From contig JALVEM010000263.1 in assembly GCA_027030825.1 (NCBI GenBank), positions 1 through 27,323 of the forward strand: 27,323 nucleotides of DNA. Reading direction: 5' to 3'. This stretch comes from Thiohalobacter sp. Lineage in GTDB: Bacteria > Pseudomonadota > Gammaproteobacteria > Thiohalobacterales > Thiohalobacteraceae. The position numbers were made by a program, and so were the translations under genes. The notes below the pieces were generated by a model that ran no database searches, was not told the DNA's origin, and saw nothing but the letters and a program-made list of their open reading frames with translations. Numbering within the stretch: position 1 is the stretch's first letter; every line of letters begins with the position of its first letter. Positions 1,259 to 20,842 of this stretch are shown here, piece by piece.

Positions 1259-1435
1259 TCAGCCGGCTCGCTTGCCCAGTCTGCCGATCAGAAGAACGCC
1301 CACGATGACGAACAACGTCGCCGGCAGGATGAGATAGGCAATCGGCGCGTGCACGACCCGCCATGAGTAATCGAACACGAACAGACACAGGGTAAGAAAC
1401 AATACCAGCAGAACAATTCGCCAGGATCTCGTCAT
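1259..1435 (-). CDS. Small two-TM membrane protein, 58 aa (MTRSWRIVLLVLFLTLCLFVFDYSWRVVHAPIAYLILPATLFVIVGVLLIGRLGKRAG)
   Basis: Translated by hand; it is below the ORF-track cut-off. Its ATG (1435-1433) overlaps the psd-like TGA (ATGA coupling), and it fills the gap to the convergent gene almost exactly (3 bp left). Two hydrophobic helices with basic ends. Confidence 0.75.
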   Translation of the reverse strand: MTRSWRIVLLVLFLTLCLFVFDYSWRVVHAPIAYLILPATLFVIVGVLLIGRLGKRAG

Positions 1436-2166
1436 TGCACGTTCACCGCCTGTCCACCCTGCTCTTCCCGATCAGGCGCTTCCGCCATGATGGTCTCTCC
1501 CGCAATGACACGTTCACCGACTCGCGCAGTCATCGGGATTCGCTCGTTCACTTCCAGAACCACCGTACTCCCCAAAAGAATTCTCCCCAGCCTTTGTCCC
1601 TTGACGACATGATCACCCACCTTGCTCCATACCTCGATCCTTCTCGCAAGATAACTCGTGATCAGGCGCACGCACACATCGTCCCAGACGTCCGTTTCAT
1701 AACAGATGCGCTTCTGGACCGGCGCATGCTTTTCTCTCAGAAATACGAGATTCCTTCCCTCGCCATCCATCAGCTTGTCACCAAGTGAGCTGATCTCGGT
1801 CACCACACCACTGACAGGATGGCGTTGAACATGGACATCCCAGAAGGTCAGTGCAATGACGACGTAACGAACGCCGTCCTTGACCGTGATATCGATCACC
1901 CTTCCGTCGGCGGGCGAAACCATGTTTTCGCCTTCGGGAATGCTGCGCTCCGGATCCCGATAGAAAAACGACAGAAACTCGGGATCGATGTTCCCCGACA
2001 TCACCCATTCACGCACCTGCTCGGTGGGCCAACGATGAAATGGATCGAGGAACGGCTTGATCAGCGCCGAGGGATAGGGAAAGTTTCTCGCCCAATCGAT
2101 CATGGCGAACATACAGGCAGCAACGATCACAGCCTGCAGAAGGCGCTCTATCGATTTTCTATTCAT
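1432..2166 (-). CDS. psd: Phosphatidylserine decarboxylase family (pyruvoyl-dependent) proenzyme, short type
   Basis: N-terminal TM helix, FFYRDPER, SPADG (Asp 1906-1908), DVHVQRHP (His 1831-1833) and self-cleavage motif LLG|STVV (Ser 1567-1569), which would give a 45-aa alpha chain. Confidence 0.88.
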   Translation of the reverse strand: MNRKSIERLLQAVIVAACMFAMIDWARNFPYPSALIKPFLDPFHRWPTEQVREWVMSGNIDPEFLSFFYRDPERSIPEGENMVSPADGRVIDITVKDGVRYVVIALTFWDVHVQRHPVSGVVTEISSLGDKLMDGEGRNLVFLREKHAPVQKRICYETDVWDDVCVRLITSYLARRIEVWSKVGDHVVKGQRLGRILLGSTVVLEVNERIPMTARVGERVIAGETIMAEAPDREEQGGQAVNVQ

Positions 2167-2205
2167 CCCTGTATATGCCTCTTGATGTGCATGAGTTGCA
2201 CAATA

Positions 2206-3543
2206 TCATCGATAGTAGCCACCACCACCGGACCCCTTCCCGTAGGGCGATTCGTGCGCCTGCACCATACCGGAACCGGCAGCTGCCCTCGCCTCACTGT
2301 CCTCGGTCACTTCCTGGTGCTGAATCATCCATTCAAGAATGACCACGATCGCAATGAGATGATAGAGAAGATCGAAATAGGCCAGGCCGATGAATGCGCC
2401 GCCCACAAGGTATCCTACCATGGATGCCTGGACCATTGCCGCAAGATCCCTCGCCCAGTACATGTGTTCGTGTTCCCTGGTGGCCCTCACCACCCTGGAT
2501 GCCGTCCTGAACGACAGGAAGATCAATGCGAGGAACAGCGCCAGACCGACGAAACCATGCTCGCCGAGCACCTCGAAATAGATGCTGTGCGAGTCGTGAT
2601 AATTCTCGGGCTCGGGTGCATATATCTGGAACACCTCCGGCTGGAACACTTCGAACCCGCCCCCGACGATCGGACGATCCAGAGCGAGATTGAAGGCAAA
2701 ACGCCAGGCGTTGATCCTTCCCATCGCCGAGCCATCCTGCTCGTAGGTCTTGATGGTCCCCATGCGCTGCATCCATGCATCTGGCATGAAATTGATGATG
2801 AGCGGTATTGCGATCGAGAATGCCAACAGAAGCGGCAATCGATTCCTGGACTTCAGGATGGTGAACAGAAGCATGGCCGAACCGGCGAGGAAGGCGCCAC
2901 GTGAATAGGTGCTCACGATTGCGATCAGGCAAAGTATCATGATGGCGCCCATGCCCCAGCGGAGCAGTCGCCGGTTCAATGACAGCTGAAGATAGCGTAG
3001 CAGGGGAAATATCACACAAAGCGCAAATGCGATCTCGTTGTTTCCGGAGATGAAGCTGCCAGATGGCCCAAGAACCCTGTGGGCGCCTCCTGTACGCAGG
3101 GCGAACAGCCCTCCCTTGATGCCATAGAACGCGATCGACATCGCAATCACCCAGACCAGGAGCTCCAGGCGCCGCCTGTCCTTCATCAGCATCAGTGTCA
3201 CGAAAATCATGACCTGGATCTTCAGCACCTTCTCCATCTGCCTGAGCGCCGCATCAGGGTAGATGGCGAAAAGTGTCGTGAAACAGGTCCACAGAATGAA
3301 CAGAACCAGCACGACAGTGACCGGCGTCCATGGAATGTCCTTCCGTTCCTTCGAGAAGAACATGGAGACGAGCGTGATGCCGGCGACGAGCTGTACGAAG
3401 GGGAAACTGTAGGCGAATCCGTATGCCAGCCGGTGCGGATTCATGTAGCCGATCCACGACCAGACGAGCAGCCCCACATGAGGCCGCATGATCATGTAGG
3501 GAATCAGGCCGAATATGACCAGCGATACCGCTATGTCACGCAT
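2206..3543 (-). CDS. Putative O-glycosylation ligase, exosortase A-associated (TIGR03097-like, O-antigen ligase/Wzy_C family)
   Basis: Characteristic N-terminus MRD...RPHVGLLVWSWIGYMNPHRL; multi-TM; TYSRGAFL, RPIVGGGF and HSIYFEVLGEHGFVGL motifs. Confidence 0.88.
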   Translation of the reverse strand: MRDIAVSLVIFGLIPYMIMRPHVGLLVWSWIGYMNPHRLAYGFAYSFPFVQLVAGITLVSMFFSKERKDIPWTPVTVVLVLFILWTCFTTLFAIYPDAALRQMEKVLKIQVMIFVTLMLMKDRRRLELLVWVIAMSIAFYGIKGGLFALRTGGAHRVLGPSGSFISGNNEIAFALCVIFPLLRYLQLSLNRRLLRWGMGAIMILCLIAIVSTYSRGAFLAGSAMLLFTILKSRNRLPLLLAFSIAIPLIINFMPDAWMQRMGTIKTYEQDGSAMGRINAWRFAFNLALDRPIVGGGFEVFQPEVFQIYAPEPENYHDSHSIYFEVLGEHGFVGLALFLALIFLSFRTASRVVRATREHEHMYWARDLAAMVQASMVGYLVGGAFIGLAYFDLLYHLIAIVVILEWMIQHQEVTEDSEARAAAGSGMVQAHESPYGKGSGGGGYYR

Positions 3544-3549
3544 GACGTT

Positions 3550-4704
3550 TCAACCCGTCCTGGAATCTGCCGTTCGATCGACCGGAAAGCCGTTTTCCAG
3601 CATGAGCGAATCCATGAAGAACTTGGCCGCCCAGTTCGGCACCCGCCAGCGCATGTACTCGCCATAGACGGGGTAAGACCCCTGGATGCCGCCACGCAAT
3701 CCATCGTCGGCGTCATCGAGGGATTGCACGCTCATGTTGTAGGCATTTGCCTCCCTGGCCGCTTTCGCCAGCCTTGCATTGCCGGCCACCTCGTCGATTC
3801 TCTGCCAGTTGAGCGCCATCTGCGAATTTCCAGTCAGGCAGCTCCACCTGGCTGCCGGCTGCCACTCCGAATCCAGGCGGCCCGGCAGGGCGCCATCCCG
3901 GCGCTGCGCAGCCGCCACATTCTCCGCAGCAAGAACAGCGAGATCGATGAAATCGTCCCTGTCGGCGGCGACGCCGACTTCGAGAATGCCCCTGACCGCA
4001 TAGGCGATGGTGTGCGTCAGCGGCCTTGAATTGTCCGTCAGGCAGTTGTCCGGCATCCAGCCGTTCCCGTGAGCACGGCGCGCGACCCAGTCGACATTCT
4101 TCACGGCAGCATCCAGCCATTCCTGTCTTCCGAGCACCTCCCATGCCCTGACCAGCCCGAAAGCGACACGCGTGTTGTAGGTATTCACTTCGTGGCTTGC
4201 GAAGGGCGAGGCATGCCTTCGCCAGGCCCCGTCGTCATCCTGTACTTTCACCAGCCAGTCGGATGCCTTCGTCAGGGAATCCGCAAATACCGGATCCCGG
4301 GTTTCCTCATAGGCCCTGGCCCAGCCGAAAAGCACCTGTCCCGTATTGAATATGGTCGGCGCCTTGATATCGGCATCCATCGTGCCTGCAAGCACGCCAC
4401 CCTCATCGAGCTGAATTTCGGATTCCCACCGGGCCATGCGTTCGGCACGTTCGGCGAACTCCCGGTTTCCAGAATAGGCGGCGTAGTCGTACAGGGTCGT
4501 GATGATGTACCCCGTGGTCTCTGGATAGGAAGCCGACCACTCGCCGGCCTTGATGTCATAGCTCGCGGACACGCCATCGTCTGCCGTGGCATCCTGCGCC
4601 CGAGCCAGCCATTCCGCAGCAGCCGCCAGATGCGTATCGGGATCACGCGGCTTTCGACGTCCGATATCCAGTCCTTCAGCCAATGCCTTGATGATTCTTC
4701 TCAT
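3550..4704 (-). CDS. Uncharacterised (alpha/alpha)-toroid protein (prenyltransferase/squalene-cyclase-like repeats) of polysaccharide loci
   Basis: Motifs SYPETTGYII, FNTGQVLFGW, WLVKVQDDDGAW (QW-repeat-like), LTHTIAY, CLTG and PNWAAKFFMD. No signal peptide. ATGA overlap with the upstream gene. Confidence 0.7.
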   Translation of the reverse strand: MRRIIKALAEGLDIGRRKPRDPDTHLAAAAEWLARAQDATADDGVSASYDIKAGEWSASYPETTGYIITTLYDYAAYSGNREFAERAERMARWESEIQLDEGGVLAGTMDADIKAPTIFNTGQVLFGWARAYEETRDPVFADSLTKASDWLVKVQDDDGAWRRHASPFASHEVNTYNTRVAFGLVRAWEVLGRQEWLDAAVKNVDWVARRAHGNGWMPDNCLTDNSRPLTHTIAYAVRGILEVGVAADRDDFIDLAVLAAENVAAAQRRDGALPGRLDSEWQPAARWSCLTGNSQMALNWQRIDEVAGNARLAKAAREANAYNMSVQSLDDADDGLRGGIQGSYPVYGEYMRWRVPNWAAKFFMDSLMLENGFPVDRTADSRTG

Positions 4705-5906
4705 GCCTGTCCCGCCACGTTTCCGATTCTGATTCTCCCCAGCCTTTTGGTCAGTCGCCTGTACCCTTCATACAGCCCAGGAAGCGGGTCGCTCCATCGC
4801 CATACGGAATCCACTCCGCTTCCGGGTGATACATGACACTGCCTGCCCTGCCTTTCTGCTGACCACCTGGGCATGTGCCTGTCGCGCCAGATTCTGACTC
4901 TTCGCGTCCTCTTCTGTTCGGGTATCTCGCCCTTGACCAGATCGGCGTACATCGCCCACGGAAGATTCACACCGTTGAGTGCTGCCACTTCTTCCTGATA
5001 ATCGGTTCTGCCGATGGTGGGCTCGATCATGTAGAATCTGCCATTGACTGCATGCCGCTTGAATTCCATGCTGCCCATGCCGACAAGGCCGATTGCAGCC
5101 ACGAATCTCTCCGTTTCGCTTCGAACGGCCTCGATCACATCGCCATCGAGCTCGGGCATGCAACTTGCCGTTCCACCGGTTCCGGGCGGCCATGAATACA
5201 GCTTCCTGCCGACGAACGCGGCGTCCATGTGCCCCGGCCGGCTGCAGTAGAACAGGCAGAAACGAATCTCCTCGTCCCCTCCAGGCACCCATTCCTGCAC
5301 AACCACTTCGTCGACATGAGGGAACACCTCTTCGAAGACCCTGGCGAGCTCTTCCCGATCGTGCACGAAATAGGCCTTTCTGCAATGCCTGGCATAGGCA
5401 TCGTTCTTCACCGACGGCTTGACGATGCAGGGGAATTCCACCGCAGACACGTCCTCGTATGTACTCCTGTCGACTGTCCAGGTTCCCGGCACCAGAAACC
5501 CGTGCTTCTTCGCCAGCGCGTCGAATCCGGATTTCGACGTGAGCCTCTCCAGCAACTGTCCGTCCGGCAGTTTGTATCGGCAGCAGGAGGCAAGATCCTT
5601 ATGGTGGCGCACCAGCGTTTCAACCGTGCGTTCCTCCGTCGGAAACAGTACCGGCCTTTCCCTCGCCCTGTCGGACAACTGCTGGATCTGCTTCACGAGA
5701 CTCCGACCTGAAAGCGATTCCACCCGACGGAAACGGGCATGCCGGGTCAGACGATAGGGCGAATCCGACCGGTCGTGCAGCGCCAGCACCGGCACGCGCC
5801 TGCGGGACAGGCTCCTGGCCACACCCAGACCATTGATGTCGAGACCAATGACGATGGCTACGGGCTGCCTGCTCTTTTCGAGTAACGATTCGGTAACCAT
5901 CTGCAC
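4701..5906 (-). CDS. ATP-grasp carboxylate-amine ligase (D-aspartate ligase-like)
   Basis: N-terminal GLDINGLGVARSL; ATP-grasp motifs CIVKPS, VVQEWVPG and MEFKR...FYMIEPTIGR. Start is GTG 5906 or ATG 5900, with an in-frame stop shortly upstream. Confidence 0.85.
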   Translation of the reverse strand: MQMVTESLLEKSRQPVAIVIGLDINGLGVARSLSRRRVPVLALHDRSDSPYRLTRHARFRRVESLSGRSLVKQIQQLSDRARERPVLFPTEERTVETLVRHHKDLASCCRYKLPDGQLLERLTSKSGFDALAKKHGFLVPGTWTVDRSTYEDVSAVEFPCIVKPSVKNDAYARHCRKAYFVHDREELARVFEEVFPHVDEVVVQEWVPGGDEEIRFCLFYCSRPGHMDAAFVGRKLYSWPPGTGGTASCMPELDGDVIEAVRSETERFVAAIGLVGMGSMEFKRHAVNGRFYMIEPTIGRTDYQEEVAALNGVNLPWAMYADLVKGEIPEQKRTRRVRIWRDRHMPRWSAERQGRQCHVSPGSGVDSVWRWSDPLPGLYEGYRRLTKRLGRIRIGNVAGQA

Positions 5907-7492: not shown

Positions 7493-8959
7493 TCAACGGC
7501 TGCGCAGTTTCCTTCCCTGAACGGGGTACACGAGTGACAGCAGCTCGATCGATGCCTGACGATTCACCATCAGACTGACCAAAGGATAAGCCAGCATACC
7601 GGACAACACCAACAGCAGGAACCGTGCCATCACCTCCACTTGCTGCCCGAAAAGCATCCTCTCCGCGACAATCGCAACATACATGACAATTCCTGACATT
7701 AACGAGGGGGCCACCGCAGCAGCGAACTCGCCGATACCTATGCCGATCAGGGGGATCGAACGCATCAACATGACTGCAAACGCCAGCGGGTATGCAATGC
7801 ACCAGGCGACGACCACGCCCGTCAGCCCCCATCTCGTTCCGACAAGCACGGCCGACGGCACGATGATGCAGGCCAGCGAAAGATTGACGACATTGACATC
7901 CGGCCTGCCGACCGCCTTCACGGCCGTGGGGACATTGGCGCCCAGCATCTTCAGTGGCATGACCAGTGCCAGCAGCTGAATCGGCAGAACCACCTCTTGC
8001 CACTTGGCACCGAGCAACACGCTCACAGCCTCCGGTGCAACGGCCGATATGCCAAAGAACACGGGAACGGCAAAAACGGATATCAGACGCGTTGCCTTGA
8101 GAAAGGCGCTTCTGAAGCGTTCGCGATCATCCTGCAATGCGGAGAATGCCGGCAGACTCACCTGCGTCATGATCGCATTGAGCTTCTGCGAGGGGAGTGC
8201 TGCAAGCTGTCTGGCCACGGAATACAGTCCAAGTATCTCGTTGCCCAGTATGCGTCCTATGATGAAGATGTCCGATTCGGTATAGAGGTACCACAAGAGG
8301 CGTTCCAGCGTCACCCAGCCCCCGAACTTCGCGATTCCGAGGACACGCCCAAGTCGCGGGGTCGGGACCCTCAAATAGGGATACAGCAGATTGAGACCGA
8401 GCATGCGAACGAACATGCGCAGCAGATTTCCGTAGACGAGCGACCAGACCCCCTTCCCTACGAGCGCCAGATAGAGCGTGAACAGGCTGCCGACAATCGT
8501 CGATACCAGCTCGACAATCGCTCTGCGATTGAATTCCATACGCTTCTCGAGCATGGACTGGGGCACGATGGAAAGCGCCAGGAGAAAGAACTGCAACCCT
8601 ATCACGCGAACCACATCGATCAACCGTGGTTCACCGAAAAAGGACGCCAGCGGGATCGCAGCATGGTAGAGAACCACATAAAGCAGACCGTTGACGACGA
8701 GCGCCAGCGTATAGGCCTCTCGAACCAGCCCCTGATCGAGATCGCGTTTCTGGATCAGGGCGGCCCCCATGCCCATCTCGGCAAGCAGGTTGAGGAAGGT
8801 GATCACGGCCATCGCCATGGCCATCAATCCGTAATCCTCCGGCGCCAGCAGGCGTATGACGACGATCGTGATCACCCAGCTCGCGAGCTGGGACAACAGG
8901 CGGGCAGCCGCCATCCACTTCAGGGCGCTGACCACGCGCTGTCCCAGGCGATCATGCAT
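7493..8959 (-). CDS. wzx: Wzx/PST-family polysaccharide flippase
   Basis: VIRLLAPEDYGLMAMA, EMGMGAALIQ and GNEILGLYSVA motifs; about 12-14 hydrophobic segments. Start moved to ATG 8959 (MHDRLGQ...), which overlaps the upstream stop by 8 bp. Confidence 0.9.
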   Translation of the reverse strand: MHDRLGQRVVSALKWMAAARLLSQLASWVITIVVIRLLAPEDYGLMAMAMAVITFLNLLAEMGMGAALIQKRDLDQGLVREAYTLALVVNGLLYVVLYHAAIPLASFFGEPRLIDVVRVIGLQFFLLALSIVPQSMLEKRMEFNRRAIVELVSTIVGSLFTLYLALVGKGVWSLVYGNLLRMFVRMLGLNLLYPYLRVPTPRLGRVLGIAKFGGWVTLERLLWYLYTESDIFIIGRILGNEILGLYSVARQLAALPSQKLNAIMTQVSLPAFSALQDDRERFRSAFLKATRLISVFAVPVFFGISAVAPEAVSVLLGAKWQEVVLPIQLLALVMPLKMLGANVPTAVKAVGRPDVNVVNLSLACIIVPSAVLVGTRWGLTGVVVAWCIAYPLAFAVMLMRSIPLIGIGIGEFAAAVAPSLMSGIVMYVAIVAERMLFGQQVEVMARFLLLVLSGMLAYPLVSLMVNRQASIELLSLVYPVQGRKLRSR

Positions 8960-10112
8960 GGCCCGCCTCCAGGCAGCGGCCTGCAATTTCCGTCACCCGT
9001 CTTGCATTCTCGACCCAGTCGAAGCCCGCATCCGCCAGACGCGCCCTGGCACCTCTGCCGAGCCTTTCGCGAAGGGCGTCATCCTCGCAGAGTCTGGCCA
9101 GCCCCTTGCCGAAGTCCTCGGACGAATCCGCATCGAAAAGAAGCGCCTCGGACTCGTGCCTCACGATCTCGCGTATGTTTCTCCTGTCAGGCGCAAGGAT
9201 CGCGCAGCCAGCGGCCATGTATTCGAAGATCTTGAGTGGCGAAGCATACTCGACGACGTCCGGCTGCAATGCAACATCGAAGGCACACACATAGCGCCTC
9301 ACATCTTCATGATCGACATAACCCGTGATGGTGAACCTCTCGCTCAGACCCAGACGCTTCGCACGCTGCTCGAGGCTCGACCTGACGGGGCCGTCACCCA
9401 CCAGAAGCAGATGCACGTCCCGTCTCGTCTCCTCCCGTGCCATGTAATCCAGCACTCTTTCCATCCCGTGCCACTCGCGGACAAAACCCGAGAAGCCGAG
9501 CACAAGAGCATTCTCCAGACCCAGCGCTCGCTTGGCCTCGATGCGGGATGGCGCCTGCTCCCAGTCGGATCGGCATATGCCATTGTGGATGACCGTCATC
9601 CGCTCTTGCGGCACACCAGTATCGGCAATGATTTCGGAAAGGACCCGTGTCACTGGAAAGAGATGCGTCGCATTCTTCCAGGAGAATCGTTCCGTCCATC
9701 TCGCAAGCGGCCTGCATGCCAGGCCGTCATAGCGACTGCGCTCCATGAACAGTGGCGCATTGACTTCGAGCAACAGGGGCAGCCTGGTCAGCCTCGCCGC
9801 CAGAACCCCGGCGATGAAGTTCAGGTTGTAGCGCTCATAGACGACATCGGGAGAATGTCTCCGAATAGCCCCCAATATCCGGAACAGGGCCGGAAGGTTG
9901 TAGCCGAACTCGAGCAGTTCATAGATGAACGAAGGCACGTGCCGTTTCAGCCAGTCGACAGCACCTGCCACCCCGCCATATTCCTCTTCCATGATCTCCG
10001 GCCCCACGATCACGACCTCGTGTCCCAGGGAACGGAGCGCCCGGATGAGCTCGCTCATGTGAACGTACTGCCCGTCCTTGGATGCGATCCTGTGATGAAA
10101 AAGAATCTTCAT
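8952..10112 (-). CDS. Glycosyltransferase family 4 (GT-B)
   Basis: GFSGFVREWHG, LLLVGDGP and YASPLKIFEYMAAGCAI (E-x7-E-like region); ATGA overlap with the upstream GT4. Confidence 0.92.
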   Translation of the reverse strand: MKILFHHRIASKDGQYVHMSELIRALRSLGHEVVIVGPEIMEEEYGGVAGAVDWLKRHVPSFIYELLEFGYNLPALFRILGAIRRHSPDVVYERYNLNFIAGVLAARLTRLPLLLEVNAPLFMERSRYDGLACRPLARWTERFSWKNATHLFPVTRVLSEIIADTGVPQERMTVIHNGICRSDWEQAPSRIEAKRALGLENALVLGFSGFVREWHGMERVLDYMAREETRRDVHLLLVGDGPVRSSLEQRAKRLGLSERFTITGYVDHEDVRRYVCAFDVALQPDVVEYASPLKIFEYMAAGCAILAPDRRNIREIVRHESEALLFDADSSEDFGKGLARLCEDDALRERLGRGARARLADAGFDWVENARRVTEIAGRCLEAGHA

Positions 10113-11314
10113 CTGCCCGCCAGCTCCGAAAATATCGTCAGCATCCCGCTGGTGGTTTCATCCCAGGAAAACCTTTCTGCATACCTGCGCGTCGCATCGC
10201 TCGATGGCATGTTTGCAAGAAGCCTCCTGATACCGCCGGCAAGTGCCTCCGGTGTCCGATCATCCACCAGCACACCGGCCTCGGGCGAGGCCACCACTTC
10301 CGGAACACCCCAGATGCTCGTGGCGACCACGGGAACGCCACAGGCCATGGATTCGAGCAGAACGTTCGGCCACCCCTCCCTGTCGGAGGCGAGAACCAGA
10401 ACATCCGCAGCCGAGTAATATTCGGCAAGCTCCCGATGAGGCACCTCTCCAGCAAAGACCACCCTGTCGGCAACCTGCAGATCGGCTGCATGCGCCTCGA
10501 GGCGCCTTCGCTCCGGTCCGTCGCCCACGATCAGAAGCTGCACATCGGGCTCGAGCCGTGCAAGTGCACCGATGACCAGATCATGCCCCTTTCTCCGGAT
10601 CAGATGCCCCACACTGATCAGTACCCTGCCATCCAGACCGAACCTCTCCCTGATCCGGCGTCCGTCGACCGGGCGAAACATTTCCAGATCGACACCGTTT
10701 CTCAGAACGTGGATTTTCTCGTCATCGATCCCGAGGCCGATCATTTCGTCCTTCAGCGCCCTGCAGACCGTGATCATCGCCGATGCCCTTCGGGCCGCCC
10801 ATCGTATCCAGGCCCTCGGTACCCTGTATCGCGGAATCAGATTGATGTCCGTTCCCCGGGCCGTGATCACGAGCGGTATCGACAGCCAGCCCGAGAGCAG
10901 GGCGGCCGCCACGCCGTCCGGGTAGAAGTAATGTGCATCGAGTACATCGACACCTCCCATCTCGTCGATGGCGCTTCTGACGGGTCCCAGGGTGGCCATC
11001 GCCATGAGCAACGGTGTCATGCTCATGCCAACCTTCGGAATCACCGGATACCGTGGATGGAGAATGCGTATCCCATGACGGGACTCCTCGTGGCAGACAC
11101 CGGCAAACTCGGCATAGCTCCCGAACCAGTCCGATCTGAACGGAAACCATGGAACCGGCGCGACCACCTGGATCCGGACCCGCCCTGTCCGGAGTGCATG
11201 CCTGAGCCGGTTCTCGACGAATACCCCATGCCGTGTCTGAATATCATTGGGATACAGAGTCGTGTACGTGAGCACTCGCAGCGGCCTGTCGCCACCTTTC
11301 TCCACGTTCACCAT
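10109..11314 (-). CDS. Glycosyltransferase family 4 (TuaC-like)
   Basis: LDAHYFYPDGVAA, VITARGTDIN, LISVGHLIRRKG and SDREGWPNVLLESMACGVPVV motifs. Confidence 0.92.
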   Translation of the reverse strand: MVNVEKGGDRPLRVLTYTTLYPNDIQTRHGVFVENRLRHALRTGRVRIQVVAPVPWFPFRSDWFGSYAEFAGVCHEESRHGIRILHPRYPVIPKVGMSMTPLLMAMATLGPVRSAIDEMGGVDVLDAHYFYPDGVAAALLSGWLSIPLVITARGTDINLIPRYRVPRAWIRWAARRASAMITVCRALKDEMIGLGIDDEKIHVLRNGVDLEMFRPVDGRRIRERFGLDGRVLISVGHLIRRKGHDLVIGALARLEPDVQLLIVGDGPERRRLEAHAADLQVADRVVFAGEVPHRELAEYYSAADVLVLASDREGWPNVLLESMACGVPVVATSIWGVPEVVASPEAGVLVDDRTPEALAGGIRRLLANMPSSDATRRYAERFSWDETTSGMLTIFSELAGR

Positions 11315-12407: not shown

Positions 12408-13400
12408 CTATGCGAACACCTCGATGACGGAACGGGATGCAACCAGCACCGCCAACGAAGTGAAAAGTGCCCACAGAACTTCATTACGTGATGCTCCGAT
12501 ACCCACCCTGAACGATGCATTATCCGCACCAAACCGTCCCCTGTCCGACCACCAGGCACCGGCAACGGCGAGCAGAAGGATGATGACGACATAGAGCTGC
12601 CATCCATAGAGCACGTGATCCGCATAGGCAGACGATGCCAGCCCCCTCTCCTGAGCAAGAAGCATGATGCCGGTCACCCTGACGATATTGACGACAAGTG
12701 CCATGACCATGGCGACCGCCACGAACAACAGCCTTTTCGTAACGGTCCCGTAATAGACCCAGGCCATCGCCAGCATGATCACGGCCATGGCGATGAGGAA
12801 CCTGTATCCAGAGCAGGCTTCGGCAACCTCGAAATCCGCCACGGGCAGGCTGAGCAGTGTCCCGTCCCTGAACACGGGCACATTCAGGAGCTGCAGCATG
12901 GCTTCCGCACCCTGTGCGGTGATTGTCTGCAGGAAGGGCACGAGCCACTTGCCGTCGACGGGCACCGCCAGAAACATGTAGCCGATCGGGAAGATCATGC
13001 GTCTCGACACATCCTGACCGAAGAGAGCCAGCACGGAAAACGGGATGATCGAGACGACGCCGGCGTGCATGAATATGTTGAGATCCCACAGCCGGCCGAG
13101 TGCCCATACGGTCACCGCCAGCAGCAGCCCCAAGATCCCCCAGGCACTGGGCTTGAGCACCGCCCCGTCCAGTTTTCCTCTGGACAGGAACGCCAGCCAA
13201 AGGGCGATGGGCATGACCAGAAATCCATGCCGGTATTCCCCGGTCCTGTTCCAGGTCTGAATGAGAGAGCGGAAGGCGTCGGCATAGACGACGAATGCAG
13301 TCACGAGCAGGATGGCCCATGATGCGATACAGAGCCCGGCGGTGAATCGACCGTCAGAGGAATGCCCTGCCTGTTCCAGGTTCTGTATTCCTCGCACCAT
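12408..13400 (-). CDS. xrtA: Exosortase A (EpsH family) with no fused EpsI domain
   Basis: W..TGEYRHGFLVMPI and FLAVPV motifs; catalytic-type residues VAEACSG (Cys 12813-12815), NIVR (Arg) and DHVLYGW (His); multi-TM; stops at TAG after 330 aa. Confidence 0.88.
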   Translation of the reverse strand: MVRGIQNLEQAGHSSDGRFTAGLCIASWAILLVTAFVVYADAFRSLIQTWNRTGEYRHGFLVMPIALWLAFLSRGKLDGAVLKPSAWGILGLLLAVTVWALGRLWDLNIFMHAGVVSIIPFSVLALFGQDVSRRMIFPIGYMFLAVPVDGKWLVPFLQTITAQGAEAMLQLLNVPVFRDGTLLSLPVADFEVAEACSGYRFLIAMAVIMLAMAWVYYGTVTKRLLFVAVAMVMALVVNIVRVTGIMLLAQERGLASSAYADHVLYGWQLYVVIILLLAVAGAWWSDRGRFGADNASFRVGIGASRNEVLWALFTSLAVLVASRSVIEVFA

Positions 13401-17129: not shown

Positions 17130-17212
17130 TATTATCAGGCACAGAATCCGGCATTTCATTGGCTGAAATCGATAACCAGAAGGCCCGGACCCGGGCCGAG
17201 GAGTGGATGAAG

Positions 17213-17983
17213 ATGAAAATTTCCAGAACGACCCTGGCAATCGCACTGTCCGGCACACTGGCGCTCGCCAGCAGTGCCATCCAGGCGACCCCCATCAGCG
17301 GGGGATCCCTCCAGAGCCTGCTGGACGGCATCACGCTGGGGGGTACCTCCTCCATCGATGTGAACGCCGACCAGTACGGTCCCGACGCGGTCTGGACCCA
17401 GACCGCATCCGGCATCTCGACGGCACGCATCCTCTTCGAGATCGCCGGCTACAAGGATGTCAACAGCTTCGGCATCTATGACGCCCGGGATCCATCCCGC
17501 CGGCTCGAGATCTTCTCCGGGCCCAACGGGCCGGGTTCAGTCTCCCTGGTTCTGGATCTCGGCAGCAACGACAAGGGGGCCATCACCTTCTCCAGCACGA
17601 TCCTGCCCATCGGCACGGATACCGCCTCCTTCACCACGGACATGTTCGGGTTCTATCTGGAGACGCCCAACAACATCTGGTATTCGGAAGATCATCGCAA
17701 TGCCGATGGCAAGGATCACATGGTGACCTTCGCCGGCAACAATTCCGACCAGATCAGCGTCCCCGGATTCTTCGGCCTGCCCACGGGCTACAATCCCTGG
17801 ACCGACAAGGAGTTCATCCTGGCCTGGGAAGATCTGCCGGCCTCGAGCTCCGATGACGACTATGACGACTTCGTGGTGCTGGTGAGCAATGTCATGAGCG
17901 TGCCTGAACCGGGTACCCTGGCAATCGCCGGCGCCGGTCTGCTTGCATTCGGGTTCGGCATGCGCCTGCGGCGGCGCAGCTGA
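17213..17983 (+). CDS. PEP-CTERM sorting-domain protein with a DUF4114-like acidic C-terminal domain
   Basis: GAGGAG RBS at 17198-17203; signal peptide MKISRTTLAIALSGTLALASSAIQA; WEDLP...DDDYDDFVV; VPEP at 17900-17911 + TM helix + RLRRRS. Confidence 0.93.
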   Translation: MKISRTTLAIALSGTLALASSAIQATPISGGSLQSLLDGITLGGTSSIDVNADQYGPDAVWTQTASGISTARILFEIAGYKDVNSFGIYDARDPSRRLEIFSGPNGPGSVSLVLDLGSNDKGAITFSSTILPIGTDTASFTTDMFGFYLETPNNIWYSEDHRNADGKDHMVTFAGNNSDQISVPGFFGLPTGYNPWTDKEFILAWEDLPASSSDDDYDDFVVLVSNVMSVPEPGTLAIAGAGLLAFGFGMRLRRRS

Positions 17984-18085: not shown

Positions 18086-20842
18086 TCATGGCGCTTCTGC
18101 CAACCCCTGCTTCACGCCACCCTTCCGGGCGCGACTCAGCGCATCCAGCGCCTCGTTGTAATGTCTCAGGATTTCGGGATCCTTGCCGGACGAAAGGCGC
18201 ACCGCCCTCGCCAGTTCCTCCACCGCCTCCTCGAGGCGCCCCCGACGATACAGAATCCAGCCATAGGTGTCGGCCACGTCCGGCGCATCCGGAAGCAACC
18301 GATAGGCACGCCTCGCCAGCTCGAGACTTCCCGGCTGCGAAAGCTCTTCCCGTATCCAGGCAAGGTTGTTGAGCGCCCTCGGGTCATTCGGATGCCGCTT
18401 CAGGATACGCGCATATTCCGACTCGGCCAGCCTCAGCCTGCCCATGGCCAGTGCATCCTCGGCCAGCAGATGGCGCACGGCCACGTCGTCCGGGTGCAAT
18501 TTCAACCAACCCTGAAGAAGCTCCAACCGCGACCTGTCGCCCTGGGCCTTCATGACCTCGTGCAGGGCCAGCAACAGCCGTCTTTCCGGCTTTTTCCGCC
18601 AGGCGTTCTCGAGCACCCGACGCGCCTGCTGCCTTTCTCCCTGCCACTGCAGATAACTCGCCTCGAAAATCCTGGTCTCGACTGCATCAGGGTGGTGACG
18701 CTTGAGCCTGTCCAGCCACCGCCCGGCCGCGCCGGGATCGTTGCGCCGAAAGGCAAGCTGCAACATGCCGCCGAGCGCCTCCGGATGCGAGGGAGCCTTT
18801 TCCAGTATCCTTCCGAAGGCCTTTTCGGCCTCTTCGAGATGCCCGGAAATCATGTACGCCCGACCGAGCTCACTGAGCACATCGGCCTGATCCAGCCCCA
18901 GATGAATCGCTTCCTCCAGCGCAGCGGCCGCATCCTCTCCCTTGCCCGACTCGAGCAGCGCCCGCCCCTTCACGAACAGGGCGCCGGCCCGATCCCGGGC
19001 AAGCACAGCGAGTCTCTGGGCCCGGTCTGCCGCCTCCAGCGCGCAGCGAACATTCCGTACCGCAAGACACAGACGAGCCAGCACCAGCCTGGCCTGATAC
19101 GATCGGGGTGCGATGTCGACCGCCTGATTCGCCAGATCCAGGGCGCGAGCGACATCGCCCTGCTGCATTTCGAGACGGGCCAGGGAGATCACCACCTCCA
19201 CGTTTTCCGGATTCATGGACAGTATGTTCTGATAGATGCGCCTGGCCTCGGAGAATCTGCCCGCCATTTCCTCGAGACGTGCGAGATTGATCCTTGGAGA
19301 GACGTCTTCGGGATTCATCTCCGATGCCCGCGCAAAGGCCCCCCTCGCCTCGTCGAACCGACCCTGCAACGCATGAAGCATGCCTTCCAGATTGTGGTAG
19401 ATGGCAGGATTCCCGCCAGCGTCTCGAAACGCCTCCAGTCTTTTTCGAGCCTGCCCCAGTTTGCCCCCGGCCAGCAGATTCACGATCTCCATGGCCTGCC
19501 CGGCCAGCCGCCCTTCCCTGCTCTGCAGATTGCCCAGGATACGCGCGGCAGCCTCTGCATCCCCGGACAGCAGATAGGCCCGGGAGAGTTCGATCGTGCT
19601 TTTCGCGTCGGACGGTGTGCGGGTCTCGAGCTCGCGTATGTACTGCCTGGCTTCCGCATAAAGCCCCATCCCGAGACTGGCCTTGACCAGCAAGCGGTAG
19701 ACCCACGGATCGTCGACCCCCTTGTTCACCAGAGGATCGAGCACCTCGACAACGCCTTCGGGCTGATCCAGAAGCATGCGAACAGAGGCGATCAGACGTG
19801 TGGCAACCGGATTCCCGGGCTGTTTCCGGAGTACCAGCTCGAGATGCCGATTGGCCTGCTCGAGATTTCCCCTGGCCAGGGCAACCGCGCCGGCGAGGAG
19901 ATTGACGCGAGGATTCCCGGGCAGCTCGCTCAGCAGCGGGCGCAACGATTCTTCCGCTGCCTCGAGCCTGCCCTGTGAGTATTCCATCAGGGCATGGAGA
20001 TAGCGGGTGATGTGCTGTTTCGGGAAGTGCGCCTTCAGCCAGCGGACCTGCTCGCGGGCTTCCTCCTGCCTGCCGGTCTTCAGCAGAACCTGGATGAATC
20101 CGCTGCGTATCATCACCTGGAGGACGTCTCGGTCCCGGTCATGGAACCGTACCGCCTTCCGGTAGGCCTCGATGGCCGCCTCGTCCTCTCCCCTGAGAGC
20201 CAGCAATTCCGCCTTCTCGAACCACACGCGCGCATCGTCCGCCGCCGACTTCTCGAGTTCCCGTATCAGCTTCTCTGCCGCTTCGAGCCGCCCAGTGTTC
20301 CGATAGACACGTGCCAGTCCCAGACGGGGCTCGACGAGCCGGGGCGCTAGCCTGGCCGCCTCGCGATATTCCGAGAGCGCCCTGTCGAGATCGGACATGG
20401 CGAGCGCCGCATGTCCACGCAGGGTCAGAATCCTGCTCCTGGCCACCGGATCCCTGCCCCAGGCATCCGGCGACAGCGCCTCGAGGACTCTGGTATAGCG
20501 CCCCTGGGCGATCCACGCCTTGCCGAGCAGCAGTCTCGTCTCGACATCGTCGAGACCGAGGGAAATCGCCTTCCGAATCTCCTCTTCGGCGAGATTGGCA
20601 TTGCCGAGCGCCAGCTCGGCTCGTGCGAGCGACAGATGCGCGGCTGCATCCCGGGGACTTTGCGCGAGCAGATGCTTGACCTCGATCCTGACCAGACGCC
20701 AGTCACCGGCGGATTCGGCCTGCCTGATCCTGTCCCACCGCTCCTGCGGCGAGAGCGACTCCCGGCAACCGGAGACGAGCAGAACCAGTCCCAGCAGCGA
20801 GACGAACAGCCATTCCGCACTTCTCCCGGAAAGACTCACCAC
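18086..20842 (-). CDS. prsT: XrtA/PEP-CTERM system TPR-repeat lipoprotein PrsT (TIGR02917-like)
   Basis: Lipobox VSGC; about 918 aa of tandem TPRs; family-like motifs WRLVRIEVKHLL, ALNNLAWI and ADTYGWILYRRG; GGAG RBS + GTG start. Confidence 0.88.
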   Translation of the reverse strand: MVSLSGRSAEWLFVSLLGLVLLVSGCRESLSPQERWDRIRQAESAGDWRLVRIEVKHLLAQSPRDAAAHLSLARAELALGNANLAEEEIRKAISLGLDDVETRLLLGKAWIAQGRYTRVLEALSPDAWGRDPVARSRILTLRGHAALAMSDLDRALSEYREAARLAPRLVEPRLGLARVYRNTGRLEAAEKLIRELEKSAADDARVWFEKAELLALRGEDEAAIEAYRKAVRFHDRDRDVLQVMIRSGFIQVLLKTGRQEEAREQVRWLKAHFPKQHITRYLHALMEYSQGRLEAAEESLRPLLSELPGNPRVNLLAGAVALARGNLEQANRHLELVLRKQPGNPVATRLIASVRMLLDQPEGVVEVLDPLVNKGVDDPWVYRLLVKASLGMGLYAEARQYIRELETRTPSDAKSTIELSRAYLLSGDAEAAARILGNLQSREGRLAGQAMEIVNLLAGGKLGQARKRLEAFRDAGGNPAIYHNLEGMLHALQGRFDEARGAFARASEMNPEDVSPRINLARLEEMAGRFSEARRIYQNILSMNPENVEVVISLARLEMQQGDVARALDLANQAVDIAPRSYQARLVLARLCLAVRNVRCALEAADRAQRLAVLARDRAGALFVKGRALLESGKGEDAAAALEEAIHLGLDQADVLSELGRAYMISGHLEEAEKAFGRILEKAPSHPEALGGMLQLAFRRNDPGAAGRWLDRLKRHHPDAVETRIFEASYLQWQGERQQARRVLENAWRKKPERRLLLALHEVMKAQGDRSRLELLQGWLKLHPDDVAVRHLLAEDALAMGRLRLAESEYARILKRHPNDPRALNNLAWIREELSQPGSLELARRAYRLLPDAPDVADTYGWILYRRGRLEEAVEELARAVRLSSGKDPEILRHYNEALDALSRARKGGVKQGLAEAP

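Follow-up and report, generated by a model that had tools for sequence, protein, structure and literature searches.

D-aspartate ligase joins the side-chain carboxyl of aspartate to an amine of a sugar-nucleotide-linked peptidoglycan precursor and leaves the alpha-amino-acid head free. In butirosin biosynthesis, glutamate is attached by its gamma-carboxyl with the ATP-grasp enzyme BtrJ and is then decarboxylated to gamma-aminobutyric acid (GABA) by BtrK, a pyridoxal phosphate (PLP) decarboxylase. Phosphatidylserine decarboxylases (PSD) are regarded as phospholipid enzymes. In the HS:2 pathway of Campylobacter jejuni a decarboxylase supplies ethanolamine phosphate, and Cj1435-1437 make and trim the amine. 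The C-terminal ATP-grasp domain of Cj1438 amidates glucuronic acid (GlcA) with an amino-acid-derived amine before chain extension (PMC11800379). Here, we analyzed a stretch of 27,323 nucleotides from Thiohalobacter sp. (contig JALVEM010000263.1, positions 1 to 27,323), called the window in the following, which comes from a metagenome-assembled genome (GCA_027030825.1; 2.5 Mb in 574 contigs). The window is a minus-strand exosortase A (XrtA)/PEP-CTERM exopolysaccharide (EPS) locus, and a run of five genes closes its operon at the distal end. Among them are an ATP-grasp carboxylate-amine ligase, an (alpha/alpha)6 barrel protein, a membrane-anchored PSD-like pyruvoyl decarboxylase and a two-helix membrane mini-protein. 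At a probability of about 0.5, we consider that this module installs an amine-ended, amino-acid-derived group on the XrtA exopolysaccharide before the polymer unit is flipped by Wzx.

Compared with the described systems, the ligase is most similar to the D-aspartate ligase of Enterococcus faecium (Aslfm), which is its best fold match by nine orders of magnitude. Unlike Aslfm, it belongs to a Gram-negative EPS/exosortase locus, is coupled or fused to the barrel protein and is linked to a decarboxylase. The PSD-like protein shares the PF02666 domain, the LGST motif and an N-terminal anchor with short-type phosphatidylserine and archaetidylserine decarboxylases, including the archaeal PssD of the ArtA system (NF038088). 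It also resembles PssD in its tie to a sorting system of the exosortase/archaeosortase type (PMC7157517). In contrast to PssD and bona fide PSD, it has no PssA partner, is accompanied by an obligatory mini-protein with two transmembrane helices and travels with the ATP-grasp ligase. The HS:2 pathway is similar to the module in that an ATP-grasp ligase adds an amino-acid-derived amine to a polysaccharide repeat unit, but this ligase is of the TupA-like type, the decarboxylase is a soluble PLP enzyme, and exosortase, barrel and mini-protein are missing. BtrJ and BtrK differ by acting in carrier-protein-bound secondary metabolism in Bacillus, by the use of PLP instead of a pyruvoyl group and by the lack of membrane components. 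A further ligase-plus-decarboxylase set of XrtA loci is the canonical TIGR03098/TIGR03099 cassette. It differs from the module in consisting of an adenylating acyl-CoA-ligase-like enzyme and a PLP enzyme similar to diaminopimelate decarboxylase, with carrier-protein chemistry. Literature searches that paired PSD or ATP-grasp with exosortase loci returned no paper besides the archaeal ArtA work. An earlier note, written from the DNA sequence alone, had not recognised the combination as a described module, and no description of it was found in the searched literature.

Organization of the five-gene run

The ATP-grasp ligase is encoded at 4701-5906 on the minus strand (401 aa from a GTG at 5906, with an ATG two codons in). 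It shares an ATGA overlap at 4701-4704 with the gene of the barrel protein (3550-4704, minus; 384 aa, cytoplasmic). Separated by 6 bp, a gene for a multi-pass membrane protein follows (2206-3543, minus), which was assigned by profile matches to TIGR03097 with the domains DUF5935 and Wzy_C, and 39 bp further on lies the gene of the PSD-like protein (1432-2166, minus; 244 aa, PF02666). Its junction with the last open reading frame (ORF) of the run (1259-1435, minus), encoding the mini-protein of 58 aa with the motif FDYSWR, is again an ATGA overlap, which can be seen directly in the sequence. In a sequence scan, promoter-like and terminator-like sites inside the run were no more numerous than expected by chance, which fits a single transcription unit continuing from xrtA. 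The description given before, of five consecutive co-oriented genes with ATGA overlaps or gaps below 40 bp, is correct in all ORFs, coordinates and junctions. The family calls are right as well, namely PF02666, TIGR03097 and, by the best Swiss-Prot fold match, an ATP-grasp enzyme of the D-aspartate-ligase type.

Co-occurrence of the module genes in other genomes

For comparison, 300-301 genomes of the class were sampled, and genomes holding the PSD subfamily were reached mainly through related loci. The subfamily is rare, with 2 holders among 300 genomes of the class sample, while XrtA scores above its cut-off in 48 of 301. An XrtA or XrtA-like exosortase is present in 32 of 32 holders, 29 of them above the cut-off. 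A homolog of the ATP-grasp ligase was found in 31/31 holders versus 2/46 other XrtA genomes (p 1.6e-19), and one of these two copies carries a stop. The barrel has a homolog in 31/31 holders versus 10/46 other XrtA genomes (p 3.7e-13). The p values, from Fisher tests here and below, are uncorrected and inflated by the relatedness of the genomes. The holders belong to Rhodanobacteraceae, Salinisphaera, Acidihalobacter, Kordiimonadaceae, Emcibacteraceae, Rhizomicrobium and uncultured alpha- and gammaproteobacteria, which by record titles amounts to approximately 8-10 family-level lineages in two classes. Culturable holders include Rhodanobacter, Salinisphaera and Dyella. The earlier note had made its proposal depend on co-occurrence in other genomes, and the result is positive, as both ATP-grasp ligase and barrel accompany the PSD-like gene in every holder. 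A relative of the same family (G200) has XrtA and none of the module, so the module is accessory.

The cassette consists of two separable units, ATP-grasp ligase plus barrel, and PSD-like protein plus mini-protein. Where coordinates could be matched, both units belong to one XrtA super-locus, at a distance of 0.1 to about 36 kb from each other, and ATP-grasp, barrel and TIGR03097 mostly follow one another without interruption in this order in other genomes. Two alphaproteobacterial loci, L002 and L003 (Kordiimonadaceae and TARA), carry the PSD-like gene and the mini-ORF at about 8000-10900 beside prsK/prsR/prsT and two GT4 genes. Further neighbours are a DUF1491 gene and the gene of a protein of about 480-497 aa that has no annotation. 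In the Kordiimonadaceae genome, ATP-grasp ligase and barrel adjoin xrtA on another contig than the PSD pair. Two holders, G325 (C7:171667-175206) and G314 (C1:308175-322149), have the genes of ATP-grasp ligase, barrel and/or TIGR03097 split by stops or frameshifts and the PSD-like gene open, which points to a decaying module or to errors of assembly.

The TIGR03097 protein of the window scores 521.9 bits against a cut-off of 188.1, with Pfam matches to Wzy_C and DUF5935; the family (PEP_O_lig_1) is named 'putative O-glycosylation ligase, exosortase A-associated'. It is a generic part of XrtA loci, since TIGR03097 occurs in 65 of 77 XrtA genomes with or without the module. It was earlier read as an O-glycosylation ligase and a member of the cassette, a membership that is not specific given this distribution. 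As no other Wzy-like protein is encoded in the window, a Wzx/PCP/OPX locus, it is more simply explained as a polymerase, probably of the Wzy type. The former view of one cassette of five genes is therefore only partly supported: the other four genes do co-occur, but they form two units that can be far apart, and TIGR03097 belongs to XrtA loci in general.

The distance between the units could be taken to mean that functionally independent EPS genes merely became adjacent at the end of an operon. EPS loci are mosaic, the units are found up to about 36 kb apart, and the PSD pair of Kordiimonadaceae adjoins prsT and has no triad closer than 10 kb. Such a chance arrangement is nevertheless very unlikely, as it does not account for the co-occurrence in 31/31 holders across two classes compared with 2/46 and 10/46 other XrtA genomes, nor for natural fusions of ligase and barrel, the translational coupling at both junctions and the mini-ORF in 65/67 loci (see below).

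The ATP-grasp ligase and the barrel protein

The AlphaFold2 (AF2) model of the ligase, with a predicted local distance difference test score (pLDDT) of 93.3, shows the classical three-domain ATP-grasp fold. A fold search against the PDB gave 500 matches with E<=0.001, among which PurK, PurT and biotin carboxylase ranked first. Among the Swiss-Prot models of AFDB, the best match was the D-aspartate ligase of E. faecium (H8L902, E 1.6e-26). The superposition of both proteins covers residues 11-383 with template modelling (TM) scores of 0.75/0.72 and 18% identity, whereas the fold matches to PurT and PurK are weaker (E ~1e-17, TM ~0.6). An alignment of 40 homologs of the ligase shows no variation at K163, E281, E295 and R300, in line with the conserved Lys and Glu residues that bind nucleotide and Mg in ATP-grasp enzymes. 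No Pfam family, including the TupA-like ATP-grasp family, matched at E<=0.01, and the NCBIfam matches were weak. In a language-model atlas the ligase falls among clusters named 'carboxylate-amine ligase'.

The barrel protein was modelled by AF2 with the same pLDDT of 93.3, as twelve paired helices in an (alpha/alpha)6 six-hairpin arrangement. Its closest folds are the GH88 unsaturated glucuronyl hydrolases and the AGE/cellobiose-2-epimerase family (TM 0.72-0.74, 10-16% identity). The nearness of the modelled fold to GH88 and to the sugar epimerases and isomerases of the AGE type suggests that the barrel is directed at carbohydrates and is not a terpene cyclase. Squalene cyclase or prenyltransferase was considered as an identity for this protein, which the earlier note called a toroid, and was rejected; the corresponding Pfam matches are below cut-off and the fold is nearer to GH88/AGE. 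Sequence searches of the PDB with the ligase, the barrel and a profile of the PSD subfamily gave nothing usable.

Among 1.84 billion representative sequences, 372 relatives of the ligase were found at E<=1e-30. Three of them (P0264, P0370 and P0387) are natural fusions with the ligase in the N-terminal and the barrel in the C-terminal part, and their barrel parts are 55, 42 and 37% identical to the barrel of the window. To judge from the protein sequences, ligase and barrel would thus work together. In other relatives (P0369, P0321, P0341 and P0376) the fusion partner of the ligase is a polysaccharide deacetylase, a GNAT acetyltransferase, a flavin monooxygenase of the Lys/Orn type or a methyltransferase. 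These partners hint at steps before or after the ligase; the polysaccharide deacetylase, for instance, would expose a sugar amine.

The PSD-like decarboxylase and its mini-protein

The PSD-like protein matches PF02666 with 101.7 bits (cut-off 22) over profile positions 3-197 of 198. The self-cleavage motif L198-G199-S200-T201 is intact, and D87 and H112 are invariant in the alignment of the subfamily. It remains under every NCBIfam PSD equivalog cut-off (best NF003685, 127.8 vs 183) and also under that of NF038088 (anchor_synt_D; 84.1 vs 240). The same genome has a housekeeping PSD copy in an ilvC-psd-pssA cluster on another contig (C13), which is 31% identical to the PSD-like protein. Hundreds of subfamily homologs of about 229 aa with 50-58% identity share an N-terminal helix, the motif FPYPSxLI...RWP and the insert GDxLMDGEGR...REKxxPVQK, all three of which are missing in the housekeeping copy. 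By these features, the PSD-like gene is a dedicated paralog and member of a distinct, XrtA-linked subfamily. Four of five other holder genomes tested have a second, better-scoring PSD elsewhere. Neither the window nor any of the related loci that were examined has a pssA beside the PSD-like gene. Acidobacteriota loci L074-L086, with 33% identity, were set aside since they look like housekeeping PSD copies; in L077, the only one of them inspected, the PSD is followed by a 277-aa ORF that is pssA-like by size and position only.

Of 67 related loci, i.e., contigs carrying the PSD-like gene, 65 have an ORF of 50-99 aa immediately behind this gene, with the relaxed motif D-x-x-W-R, which the FDYSWR of the window fits; a stricter motif pattern gave 48/67. 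In one of the two exceptions the sequence ends 57 bases past the stop of the PSD-like gene. The commonest arrangement, in 27 of 48 scored starts, is a start overlapping the PSD-like stop as ATGA. Gene calls in contigs from Rhodanobacter, Kordiimonadaceae and TARA place a gene of 63-64 aa at this position. The conservation of position and motif shows that the 58-aa ORF is a real gene. Profile scans found no family match for its product, and tblastn with the 58-aa ORF does not recover its homologs.

The intact catalytic motifs and the membrane anchor could also mean that the paralog is a true PSD, which makes an ethanolamine lipid as the acceptor for XrtA, with ATP-grasp ligase and barrel as unrelated EPS enzymes. 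The subfamily is confined to XrtA genomes (32/32), and one holder, G314, has no other PSD. There is also precedent in related sorting systems, as PssA and PssD are needed for the lipidation of archaeosortase ArtA substrates (PMC7157517), and a lipid of the phosphatidylethanolamine type was proposed for rhombosortase, as quoted in Haft's 2023 preprint. However, the loci examined have no pssA neighbour, whereas the housekeeping copy sits in a psd-pssA pair. The subfamily-specific insert, the N-terminal motif and the scores below all PSD equivalog cut-offs are further points against this role, as is the strict co-occurrence with ATP-grasp ligase and barrel (31/31). Together with the distribution described in the next section, this makes the supply of a lipid anchor an unlikely function.

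Relation to the TIGR03098/TIGR03099 cassette

None of the 31 holders has TIGR03099 above cut-off, versus 18 of 46 other XrtA genomes plus one fragment (p 1.9e-5). The same is true for TIGR03098, with 0/31 holders versus 21/46 (p 2.6e-6). The source genome has no TIGR03098 match, and its best match to TIGR03099 (199.5 bits vs 478) looks like a LysA-like protein, by analogy with a lysA score. Homologs of the ligase (40%) and of the barrel (56%) also occur in Massilia niastensis, where they stand beside proteins matching TIGR03099 with 629.7 bits and TIGR03098 with 773.2 bits, in a cassette that also holds a carrier protein and two hydrolases. This context and the exclusivity indicate that the same ligase-barrel pair is partnered by either of two non-homologous decarboxylases, which are mutually exclusive in the sample. 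The PSD module thus appears to be a functional counterpart of the TIGR03098/TIGR03099 cassette, which it replaces.

The mutual exclusivity with a soluble PLP decarboxylase cassette also speaks against an enzyme making a lipid anchor. Moreover, only about 2 of the 48 XrtA genomes of the class sample carry the PSD subfamily, and neither module was present in approximately half of the XrtA genomes tested. Owing to this rarity, the subfamily cannot represent a general acceptor pathway of XrtA.

Proposed reaction sequence

Pyruvoyl decarboxylases such as PSD, PanD and others form a Schiff base with the free alpha-amine of their substrate. PanD, an aspartate alpha-decarboxylase, and PsiD, which acts on a free amino acid, are precedents among the pyruvoyl enzymes. 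N-acyl-serine is unfit as a substrate, since the free alpha-amine is required, and an attached amino acid must accordingly be held by its side chain. The route suggested in the earlier note, in which the amine of serine forms an amide with a uronic acid before decarboxylation yields an ethanolamide, was rejected on these mechanistic grounds.

For the installation of an amine-ended group, we infer substrates, order of steps and product as follows. The ATP-grasp ligase would activate a carboxylate as acyl phosphate and join the acyl group to an amine, while the barrel would bind or prepare the sugar partner. The side-chain carboxyl of aspartate or glutamate would be joined to a sugar amine of the lipid-linked repeat unit, leaving a free alpha-amino-acid head. 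The PSD-like enzyme, with the two-helix mini-protein as a putative subunit, would then strip the alpha-carboxyl of the attached amino acid. The product would be a beta-alanyl or GABA-type arm with a terminal primary amine, and the finished unit might subsequently be polymerised or ligated by the TIGR03097 protein. By inspection, positive charges follow the transmembrane helix of the PSD-like protein and are found in the loop of the mini-protein throughout the family, and neither ligase nor barrel has a signal peptide. This pattern would place all four proteins on the cytoplasmic side, which in turn points to the lipid-linked repeat unit before flipping as the target.

The two activities may also act in reverse order. 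In this case, a free amine would first be formed by decarboxylation of a free or phosphorylated amino acid, e.g., ethanolamine from serine or beta-alanine from aspartate, and the ATP-grasp ligase would then amidate a uronic acid of the repeat unit, giving a product near the ethanolamide of the earlier note. PSD-family enzymes can use free amino acids, as known for PsiD, the best folds of the barrel include the uronate-acting GH88 enzymes, and the co-occurrence data suit this order equally well. The ATP-grasp amidoligase of C. jejuni HS:2 provides a described example, using the C6 carboxylate of GlcA with ethanolamine phosphate or serinol phosphate (PMC11800379). A soluble substrate, however, gives no reason for the conserved membrane anchor or for a two-helix membrane protein as obligatory partner. 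In addition, the ligase is nearest in fold to D-aspartate ligase, an enzyme that activates the carboxylate of an amino acid, it does not match the TupA-like ATP-grasp family in Pfam, to which Cj1438C belongs, and no uridine diphosphate (UDP)-sugar dehydrogenase was found in the window by profile scans. Decarboxylation before ligation is therefore possible but doubtful.

Several observations weigh against decarboxylation of a ligated amino acid on the repeat unit. The fold likeness of the ligase to D-aspartate ligase comes at 18% identity, which leaves its substrate unfixed, and the barrel could be a hydrolase or epimerase acting apart from the ligation. Profile scans of the window found no polysaccharide deacetylase or aminotransferase that would supply the sugar amine. 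The holder G314, an uncultured alphaproteobacterium with a 2.6-Mb chromosome, has no other PF02666 gene, so the PSD-like enzyme may there still act on phosphatidylserine. The co-occurrence counts ignore phylogeny, and many of the holders are Rhodanobacteraceae or Salinisphaera. Finally, about half of the XrtA genomes have neither the module nor TIGR03098/TIGR03099, which makes the group an optional decoration. As a separate observation, G314 also has no LysA-like match to TIGR03099 at E<=1e-20.

As an extension of the proposed sequence, the module might be the maker of the exosortase nucleophile. The amine arm on the lipid-linked EPS would accept the cleaved PEP-CTERM protein from XrtA, and the TIGR03098/TIGR03099 cassette would do the same elsewhere. 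We regard this role as quite improbable.

Other genes of the locus

Upstream in the same gene run, XrtA is encoded at 12408-13400 on the minus strand (TIGR03109, 241.9 bits vs cut-off 208). It is a stand-alone protein of 330 aa, whereas most other genomes have a frame of about 510-650 aa with a fused EpsI-type domain; short XrtA frames of 298-312 aa occur in a few other genomes. PrsT (18086-20842, in the minus-strand locus) also scores above its curated cut-off, as do the TIGR03007 chain-length determinant, the TIGR03018 tyrosine autokinase, the TIGR03027 exporter and the TIGR03016 outer-membrane protein. A PEP-CTERM protein was found in the window by sequence scan at 17159-17983. The run further includes two GT4 glycosyltransferases, a Wzx flippase that likewise exceeds its curated cut-off, and a sulfotransferase (PF13469; 11308-12333, minus). 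The position of the latter gene, with xrtA on one side and the glycosyltransferases on the other, makes a sulfated polymer probable.

On the plus strand, a 5'-truncated AsnB-like gene (2-1255) converges on the module and stops 3 bp from the stop of the mini-ORF. It shows weak matches to asparagine synthase and lasso-cyclase-type models. It was considered as a part of the module and rejected, because it has no more than a weak local match to another weak AsnB-like gene, which lies directly upstream of the PSD-like gene of Rhodanobacter.

Implications

New in this locus are the XrtA-specific PSD subfamily, its mini-protein partner, the ligase-barrel fusions and the complementarity with TIGR03098/TIGR03099. 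With regard to the latter, the cassette is similar to the module as a ligase-plus-decarboxylase set in XrtA loci that adjoins ATP-grasp ligase and barrel in Massilia. If the proposed chemistry is true, it would add a route to the decoration of polysaccharides with free amines, affecting their charge and the cohesion of flocs and biofilms. The substrate range of the PSD family would be widened, and a testable handle on the roles of exosortase A accessory genes would be gained. Should the arm in addition serve as the exosortase nucleophile, the convergence of two ligase-decarboxylase routes would indicate the acceptor chemistry that has long been sought for exosortase A.

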